A stretch of 64,000 bases of DNA from Escherichia coli (GTDB taxonomy: Bacteria > Pseudomonadota > Gammaproteobacteria > Enterobacterales > Enterobacteriaceae), in the NCBI RefSeq assembly GCF_051903065.1, contig NZ_CP178438.1; one strand, written 5' to 3'. The translations under genes were made by a program, and so were the position numbers. Below the pieces are notes generated by a model. That model did not search any database, was not told the origin of the DNA, and saw only the letters and a list, made by a program, of their open reading frames with translations. Numbering within the stretch: position 1 is the first letter of the stretch; each line of letters starts with the position of its first letter. Below are positions 51,649 through 52,051 of the stretch, piece by piece.

Positions 51649-51755
51649 TATTCTTCCCTCACGGTGGTGAGTTATTGTGACCCAGAAAATTTTCCAGAAT
51701 GCTGCAAACGTCTCTGCGAGACAAAGCCATCATAAAAAACAGGGAGATACGCTTT

Positions 51756-51769
51756 TTGATAGGAATCAA
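51756..51769. promoter_or_regulatory. FNR site upstream of yhjA
   Basis: TTGATaggaATCAA, perfect half-sites of TTGAT-N4-ATCAA, about 110 bp before the ATG. Confidence 0.55.
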
Positions 51770-52051
51770 TCAATTACATGAATATAAACTATCAATAAGA
51801 TAGCCTGTGCCTATTACCCAGATCAGGAATGGCATATCATGATTGCGGCGAGAGCAGGATTGAATGTTCTGAAAATGAAAAACAACACGAAATCTGTATT
51901 TTTATAAATTCCATTGATATTAGTGCGTTATATTTTTTGACAGGTTAATAAACGTGATCCACCGCACGCTTTGTCGCCCACCAGGCGGAGCGAATGACTA
52001 CCCTTAAAGAAAAGCCGATAATTAGCGACGAATTTCGGAGGTTGGATCCTT

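Follow-up and report, generated by a model that had tools for sequence, protein, structure and literature searches.

The 403 bp from position 51649 to position 52051 of the Escherichia coli chromosomal DNA analysed here (one stretch of 64 kb, henceforth the window) are exactly the spacer that separates the divergently oriented genes ccp (yhjA) and treF (Table 1). Gene order at this locus is gadA, ccp, treF, yhjB, the same as in K-12, and the spacer is poorer in G+C (39.7%) than the window as a whole (48.8%). The Pfam domains Haem_bd, CCP_MauG (7e-57) and Cytochrom_C were found in the 465-aa ORF. The preliminary description of this DNA had named ccp/yhjA as the regulated gene, with which both the CCP_MauG match and the RefSeq annotation agree. 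The gene driven by the promoter described in the following encodes a membrane-anchored, three-haem cytochrome c peroxidase.

Table 1. Features of the ccp-treF region in window coordinates (strand "." = palindromic or unassigned)
Feature	Position	Strand	Basis or remark
ccp (yhjA), 465 aa	50251..51648	-	ORF with ATG at 51648; RefSeq annotation ccp
ccp 5' leader, about 74 nt (putative)	51649..51722	-	Start placed from the -10 hexamer
Candidate -10 hexamer TATGAT	51729..51734	-	Read from the sequence, 21 nt downstream of the FNR box
FNR box TTGATAGGAATCAA, palindromic half-sites	51756..51769	.	Exact match to TTGAT-N4-ATCAA
Candidate IHF core consensus AATCAATCAATTA (WATCAANNNNTTR)	51764..51776	+	Inside the IHF ChIP-chip peak of PMC3688515
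OxyR-type 37-mer ATGAatataaaCTATcaataagATAGcctgtgcCTAT	51778..51814	.	Four ATAG-type elements at 10-bp spacing
treF	52052..53701	+	Divergent neighbour of ccp

Binding sites and candidate core promoter of ccp

A match to the FNR consensus in both half-sites had been claimed for the DNA upstream of ccp, and the exact 14-mer is present there, reading TTGATTCCTATCAA on the ccp strand. The distance from the A of the ccp start codon is 108 bp to the near edge of the box and 114.5 bp to its centre, close to the approximately 110 bp given previously. Throughout the window, the pattern TTGATNNNNATCAA has two exact matches compared with 0.12 expected, a number that was reached in none of 100 dinucleotide-preserving shuffles, and the ccp-treF spacer harbours no FNR-like sequence with up to two mismatches besides this box. 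A CRP site was ruled out by sequence, as the half-sites TTGAT/ATCAA and the 4-bp spacer differ from TGTGA-N6-TCACA. The identical box sequence occurs in K-12, and a yhjA/treF entry with exactly TTGATAGGAATCAA is among the predicted FNR sites in PMC3688515 (Table S6).

The preliminary description had further proposed to search the same interval for an OxyR site. We found an OxyR-type site 8 bp upstream of the FNR box (on the ccp strand ATAGgcacaggCTATcttattgATAGtttatatTCAT, 51814 to 51778), in which 14 of the 16 specified bases match ATAG-N7-CTAT-N7-ATAG-N7-CTAT; both mismatches fall in the element nearest the FNR box. With up to three mismatches allowed, this is the single match of the pattern in 64 kb, compared with 0.13 expected, and such a match was found in 13 of 100 shuffles, which makes the site, taken alone, suggestive and not decisive.

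No -35 hexamer was found on the ccp strand, as is expected of a class II promoter. Assuming 7 nt after TATGAT, transcription of ccp would start near 51722, which would put the centre of the FNR box at about -40.5, the class II position, and the OxyR-type site at about -92 to -56. The value of -40.5 rests on the -10 hexamer together with the conservation of this hexamer; a literature search for a published position of the box turned up unrelated papers only. The leader implied by this start agrees with the earlier estimate of at least 60 nt. A generic sigma-70 scan of the spacer called no ccp promoter; since there is no -35 element this is expected and does not constitute counter-evidence. The only candidate of that scan is on the treF strand, with a -10 hexamer ending at 52022 and a start near 52029.

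Other functions of the leader were considered as well. A structured leader was rejected, as folding was no better than that of shuffled sequences (z = -0.75), and so was a small RNA or other Rfam element, with no Rfam family matching the spacer at E values up to 1. A short inverted repeat, CTCACGGTGGTGAG, is located at 51658-51671 just upstream of the ccp ribosome-binding site. It corresponds to a weak hairpin flagged by a terminator scan on the plus strand and is absent from the predicted minimum-energy fold of the ccp leader.

Sequence variation within E. coli

Among 5426 complete E. coli genomes, 5414 contain the interval 51649-52051 with an identity of at least 95%. The 86-nt module, counted from the -10 hexamer through the OxyR site, has an identical copy in 3310 of 5422 complete genomes, K-12 and O157:H7 among them, and the remaining copies are at least 95% identical. 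In three sampled variant strains, the half-sites, the hexamer and the ATAG elements are intact, and all differences fall elsewhere. The spacer of K-12 MG1655 is also 403 bp long and differs at two of 403 positions, 51889 and 51895, both far from the sites; therefore, experiments performed in K-12 apply directly to the promoter in the window.

Two strains carry larger changes. In strain fS54a (locus L049, about 1805-3001), an IS5-family element (ISKpn26-like, with a frameshifted transposase) interrupts the FNR box within its 4-bp spacer, at the point corresponding to window position 51762, so that TTGATAG precedes the element and ATAGGAATCAA follows it. As a consequence, the ccp core promoter is about 1.2 kb apart from the distal half-site and the OxyR site, so that in this one genome the module is naturally knocked out. 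In strain TUM17668, the match to the ccp-treF spacer falls into two parts that lie apart from each other, interrupted near window position 51838, which suggests another insertion or a rearrangement upstream of the OxyR site.

Conservation across Enterobacterales

To follow the module beyond E. coli, a scan for the Ccp protein in one genome per species yielded 41 loci, and the 400 bp upstream of each orthologue were scanned. The FNR box is present at all ccp loci of Escherichia and Citrobacter. With 0-2 mismatches it was also found in Pluralibacter, Providencia (6 species), Trabulsiella, Entomohabitans, Hafnia, Enterobacillus, Buttiauxella and Yersinia (2), as well as upstream of ccp in an Enterobacteriaceae metagenome-assembled genome. 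Among the orthologues, the box lies 93-233 bp ahead of the ATG. The 15 loci that belong to neither Escherichia nor Citrobacter have 12 FNR sites with no more than one mismatch in their upstream 400 bp, compared with a background of 0.05 such sites per 400 bp in the flanks of these same 15 loci.

The spacing of the elements is conserved together with the elements themselves. In 26 of 27 non-redundant ccp upstream regions, taken from these genera and the metagenome-assembled genome, an OxyR-type 37-mer (at most four mismatches) starts exactly 45 nt before the start of the FNR box; the sole exception is Providencia burhodogranariea, where this distance is 56 nt. On the other side of the box, all 27 sequences possess, at a distance of 21-23 nt, a hexamer whose second base is A and whose sixth is T. 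In 24 of the 27, this hexamer matches in at least four of six bases, compared with 5.7% of random positions. Hence the order OxyR site, 8 bp, FNR box, 21-23 nt and -10 hexamer is retained in about ten genera. The sequence between and around these elements diverges freely, so that the pattern is a footprint rather than general conservation. The box upstream of ccp can be regarded as confirmed, real and conserved; the sequences of the sites, their spacing and their conservation are direct observations.

In the Providencia burhodogranariea locus (L018 2800-2900), the gap between the OxyR and FNR sites measures 19 bp instead of the 8 bp seen elsewhere. The additional 11 bp equal one helical turn and would leave the two proteins facing the same side of the DNA.

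The gene treF is the divergent neighbour of ccp only in Escherichia and Citrobacter. The module is kept in genera without an adjacent treF and, therefore, belongs to ccp. No such module was detected in the 400 bp upstream of the ccp relatives of Saezia, Lachnospiraceae and Chloracidobacterium, which were excluded from the footprint. The modest addition made here is an OxyR-FNR-(-10) module with almost invariant spacing over many enterobacterial genera.

A second FNR box upstream of chuT

The window's other perfect FNR consensus, TTGATAAAAATCAA, is found at 32332-32345 in the chuA-chuT spacer (31771-32452) of the haem-uptake island, an island carried by 2236 of 5426 E. coli genomes. The box lies 114.5 bp upstream of the chuT/shuT ATG (32453) and is followed downstream by a Fur-box-like sequence at about 32411-32430; the most divergent E. 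coli copies sampled retain the box without change. Start mapping in Shigella dysenteriae placed the beginning of shuT transcription 42 nt ahead of the ATG (PMC5458455). With this start, the centre of the chuT box would be at -72.5, which is close to a class I position and upstream of the Fur site. ChuW and ChuY, enzymes of anaerobic haem degradation, are encoded in the chuT-chuW-chuX-chuY operon, so that control by FNR would make sense. The shuT paper does not mention FNR or anaerobiosis, and its promoter-only construct held only 62 nt upstream of the start, by which the FNR box was excluded (PMC5458455). The papers covered by our literature search describe control of chuS by FnrS, and none of them links FNR to transcription from chuT. 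The chuT box seems to be more novel than the box upstream of ccp.

Regulation of ccp by FNR and OxyR

Both FNR and OxyR reportedly control yhjA in K-12 (Partridge, Poole and Green 2007, Microbiology 153:1499, pmid 17464064). The function of Ccp is reportedly treated by Khademian and Imlay (2017, PNAS 114:E6922). Point mutation of the box is reported to abolish FNR-dependent induction. In PMC10301912, yhjA is placed under double control of OxyR and FNR, with expression confined to low oxygen plus peroxide. The RegulonDB curation paper (PMC4207228) gives, in its tables, OxyR as an activator of yhjA and FNR as an activator of yhjA under anaerobiosis. Both sources cite Partridge et al. 2007 for this regulation. 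Furthermore, FNR binding in vivo was detected at yhjA and treF by ChIP-qPCR (PMC2690998). Under hypoxia, Ccp is induced by OxyR (PMC8115020), and its induction by H2O2 via OxyR is stated in PMC8115020, PMC12051229 and PMC10301912. According to reviews from the Imlay laboratory, Ccp enables the respiratory chain to accept H2O2 as an electron acceptor (PMC8115020, PMC12051229).

The anaerobic activation of ccp by FNR, as claimed in the preliminary description, corresponds to these reports of FNR dependence (PMC10301912 and PMC4207228) and to the positive ChIP-qPCR (PMC2690998). That interpretation is supported as correct; it is already established and not new.

Taken together, the interval 51649-52051 is in all likelihood the regulatory region of ccp (yhjA), operating as an AND gate of FNR and OxyR. 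In the absence of oxygen, FNR with an intact [4Fe-4S] cluster would bind TTGATAGGAATCAA about 40.5 bp upstream of the ccp start, substitute for the missing -35 element and activate RNA polymerase as a class II activator, presumably by direct contact. OxyR oxidised by peroxide would bind next to it on the upstream side, at the four-element site (about -92 to -56). Strong expression would need both proteins, and the quinol-dependent periplasmic peroxidase would be made when H2O2 is present and oxygen is absent or scarce. The dependence on FNR and OxyR as well as the binding of FNR in vivo are taken here from the literature; what we infer is where exactly transcription starts (near 51722), that FNR makes a class II contact, and how OxyR helps. 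Such a promoter explains how a periplasmic quinol peroxidase is made only with H2O2 present and oxygen missing, a logic that was published for K-12. As a consequence, H2O2 becomes usable as a respiratory electron acceptor.

The box could also serve the divergent treF, alone or along with ccp, as a palindrome can act both ways. In a network-inference study, treF was a predicted FNR target of high confidence, and ChIP-qPCR was positive (PMC2690998), an assay that cannot tell apart two genes sharing a 403-bp spacer. In an hns/stpA mutant, and only there, treF changed with oxygen (PMC3688515 Table S11). Against a role at treF, the treF ATG is 283 bp from the box, and the box is about 266 bp upstream of the implied treF start near 52029, a distance that exceeds what class I or class II activation allows. 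The spacing of the module is held on the ccp side, also in genera that lack an adjacent treF. On the grounds of distance and synteny, treF was rejected as the main target, and we regard any role of the box at treF as distinctly unlikely.

FNR occupancy, H-NS and IHF

The genome-wide data on FNR binding differ from the targeted data. In cells grown anaerobically in glucose minimal medium, Myers et al. 2013 obtained no FNR ChIP-seq peak at the ccp box (PMC3688515 Table S6), and no FNR peak is given near it in the table for the hns/stpA mutant either (PMC3688515). Instead, the box overlaps enrichment of H-NS and IHF (PMC3688515 Tables S3, S4, S6). Transferred to the window, the H-NS region of PMC3688515 spans 46390-51821 and the IHF ChIP-chip peak (Table S4) 51472-52023. 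In the same study, yhjA has an array ratio of 0.50 (PMC3688515 Table S12). The values for cyo and sdh versus nar and dms show that this column is the aerobic/anaerobic ratio; thus, yhjA expression is about 2-fold higher anaerobically in K-12. The ChIP-seq culture was free of peroxide, so that the second input of the promoter was off; low or masked FNR occupancy under such conditions is the simplest reading.

The candidate IHF core is one of seven matches to the IHF core consensus on both strands of the 64 kb. It overlaps the FNR half-site distal to ccp, which supplies its ATCAA, and fills the gap to the OxyR site. In an alignment read by eye, the match is kept in Citrobacter and not in Providencia. 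Judged by this match, binding of IHF at 51764-51776 is possible and could contribute to the absent FNR ChIP-seq signal.

According to the least favourable view of these data, the box would be a silent, non-functional match in AT-rich, H-NS/IHF-bound DNA of the acid fitness island; this agrees with the missing FNR peak, the H-NS and IHF enrichment over the site (PMC3688515), the low G+C content of the spacer relative to the window (39.7% vs 48.8%) and the IHF core overlapping one half-site, but is highly improbable given that the box and its distances to the -10 hexamer and the OxyR site are conserved in about ten genera with diverging flanks, that targeted ChIP-qPCR was positive (PMC2690998), that FNR dependence is reported in published work (PMC10301912, PMC4207228), and that the ChIP-seq culture contained no peroxide, leaving the second input off.

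Within the preferred reading, in which FNR and OxyR jointly drive ccp, the way the two proteins cooperate might be more specific. H-NS and IHF might occlude the FNR box unless OxyR is active, with oxidised OxyR at the rigid 8-bp gap needed for FNR occupancy, a proposal that we consider doubtful. Such OxyR-dependent unmasking would amount to anti-silencing or direct cooperativity, not to two independent activators acting on RNA polymerase, and this distinction is put forward just as tentatively. If true, it would explain three features at once: a perfect consensus without ChIP-seq signal in a peroxide-free anaerobic culture, an IHF core that overlaps one half-site, and the invariant spacing of the OxyR and FNR sites in Enterobacterales, whose sole exception amounts to one full helical turn. 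The positive ChIP-qPCR obtained without a stated peroxide treatment (PMC2690998) argues against it. It is thus documented that targeted and genome-wide assays of FNR occupancy disagree at a site with a perfect consensus.

Comparison with known promoters

The closest relative of the promoter in the window is the yhjA promoter of K-12, with the same locus, spacer length and gene order and an identical 86-nt module. The positions derived here for the FNR box (-40.5) and the OxyR site (-92 to -56) are predicted ones. Nothing of substance differs, and the window represents another E. coli strain.

A more distant parallel is the ccp gene of Neisseria gonorrhoeae, which is FNR-dependent and induced without oxygen via an FNR-family activator, like ccp of E. 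coli. The gonococcal enzyme is a two-haem lipoprotein, unlike the three-haem quinol peroxidase of E. coli, and its gene is not known to be co-activated by OxyR.

Class II FNR promoters with the box at -40.5 or -41.5 include those of yfiD, ydhY, dmsA and narG. These promoters, whose boxes are given in PMC3688515 (Table S6), and that of ccp have in common a TTGAT-N4-ATCAA sequence 21-22 nt upstream of a -10 hexamer, a candidate one in ccp, and the lack of a -35 hexamer. Unlike the others, the ccp box is paired with an OxyR site at a fixed gap of 8 bp and not with NarL/NarP sites or a second FNR site, and it lacks a ChIP-seq signal in plain anaerobic growth. The promoter of hcp-hcr is likewise listed as activated by FNR and OxyR, the latter given as its activator in a table of PMC4207228; its FNR box has a ChIP-seq peak (PMC3688515 Table S6), and its gene products are unrelated to Ccp.
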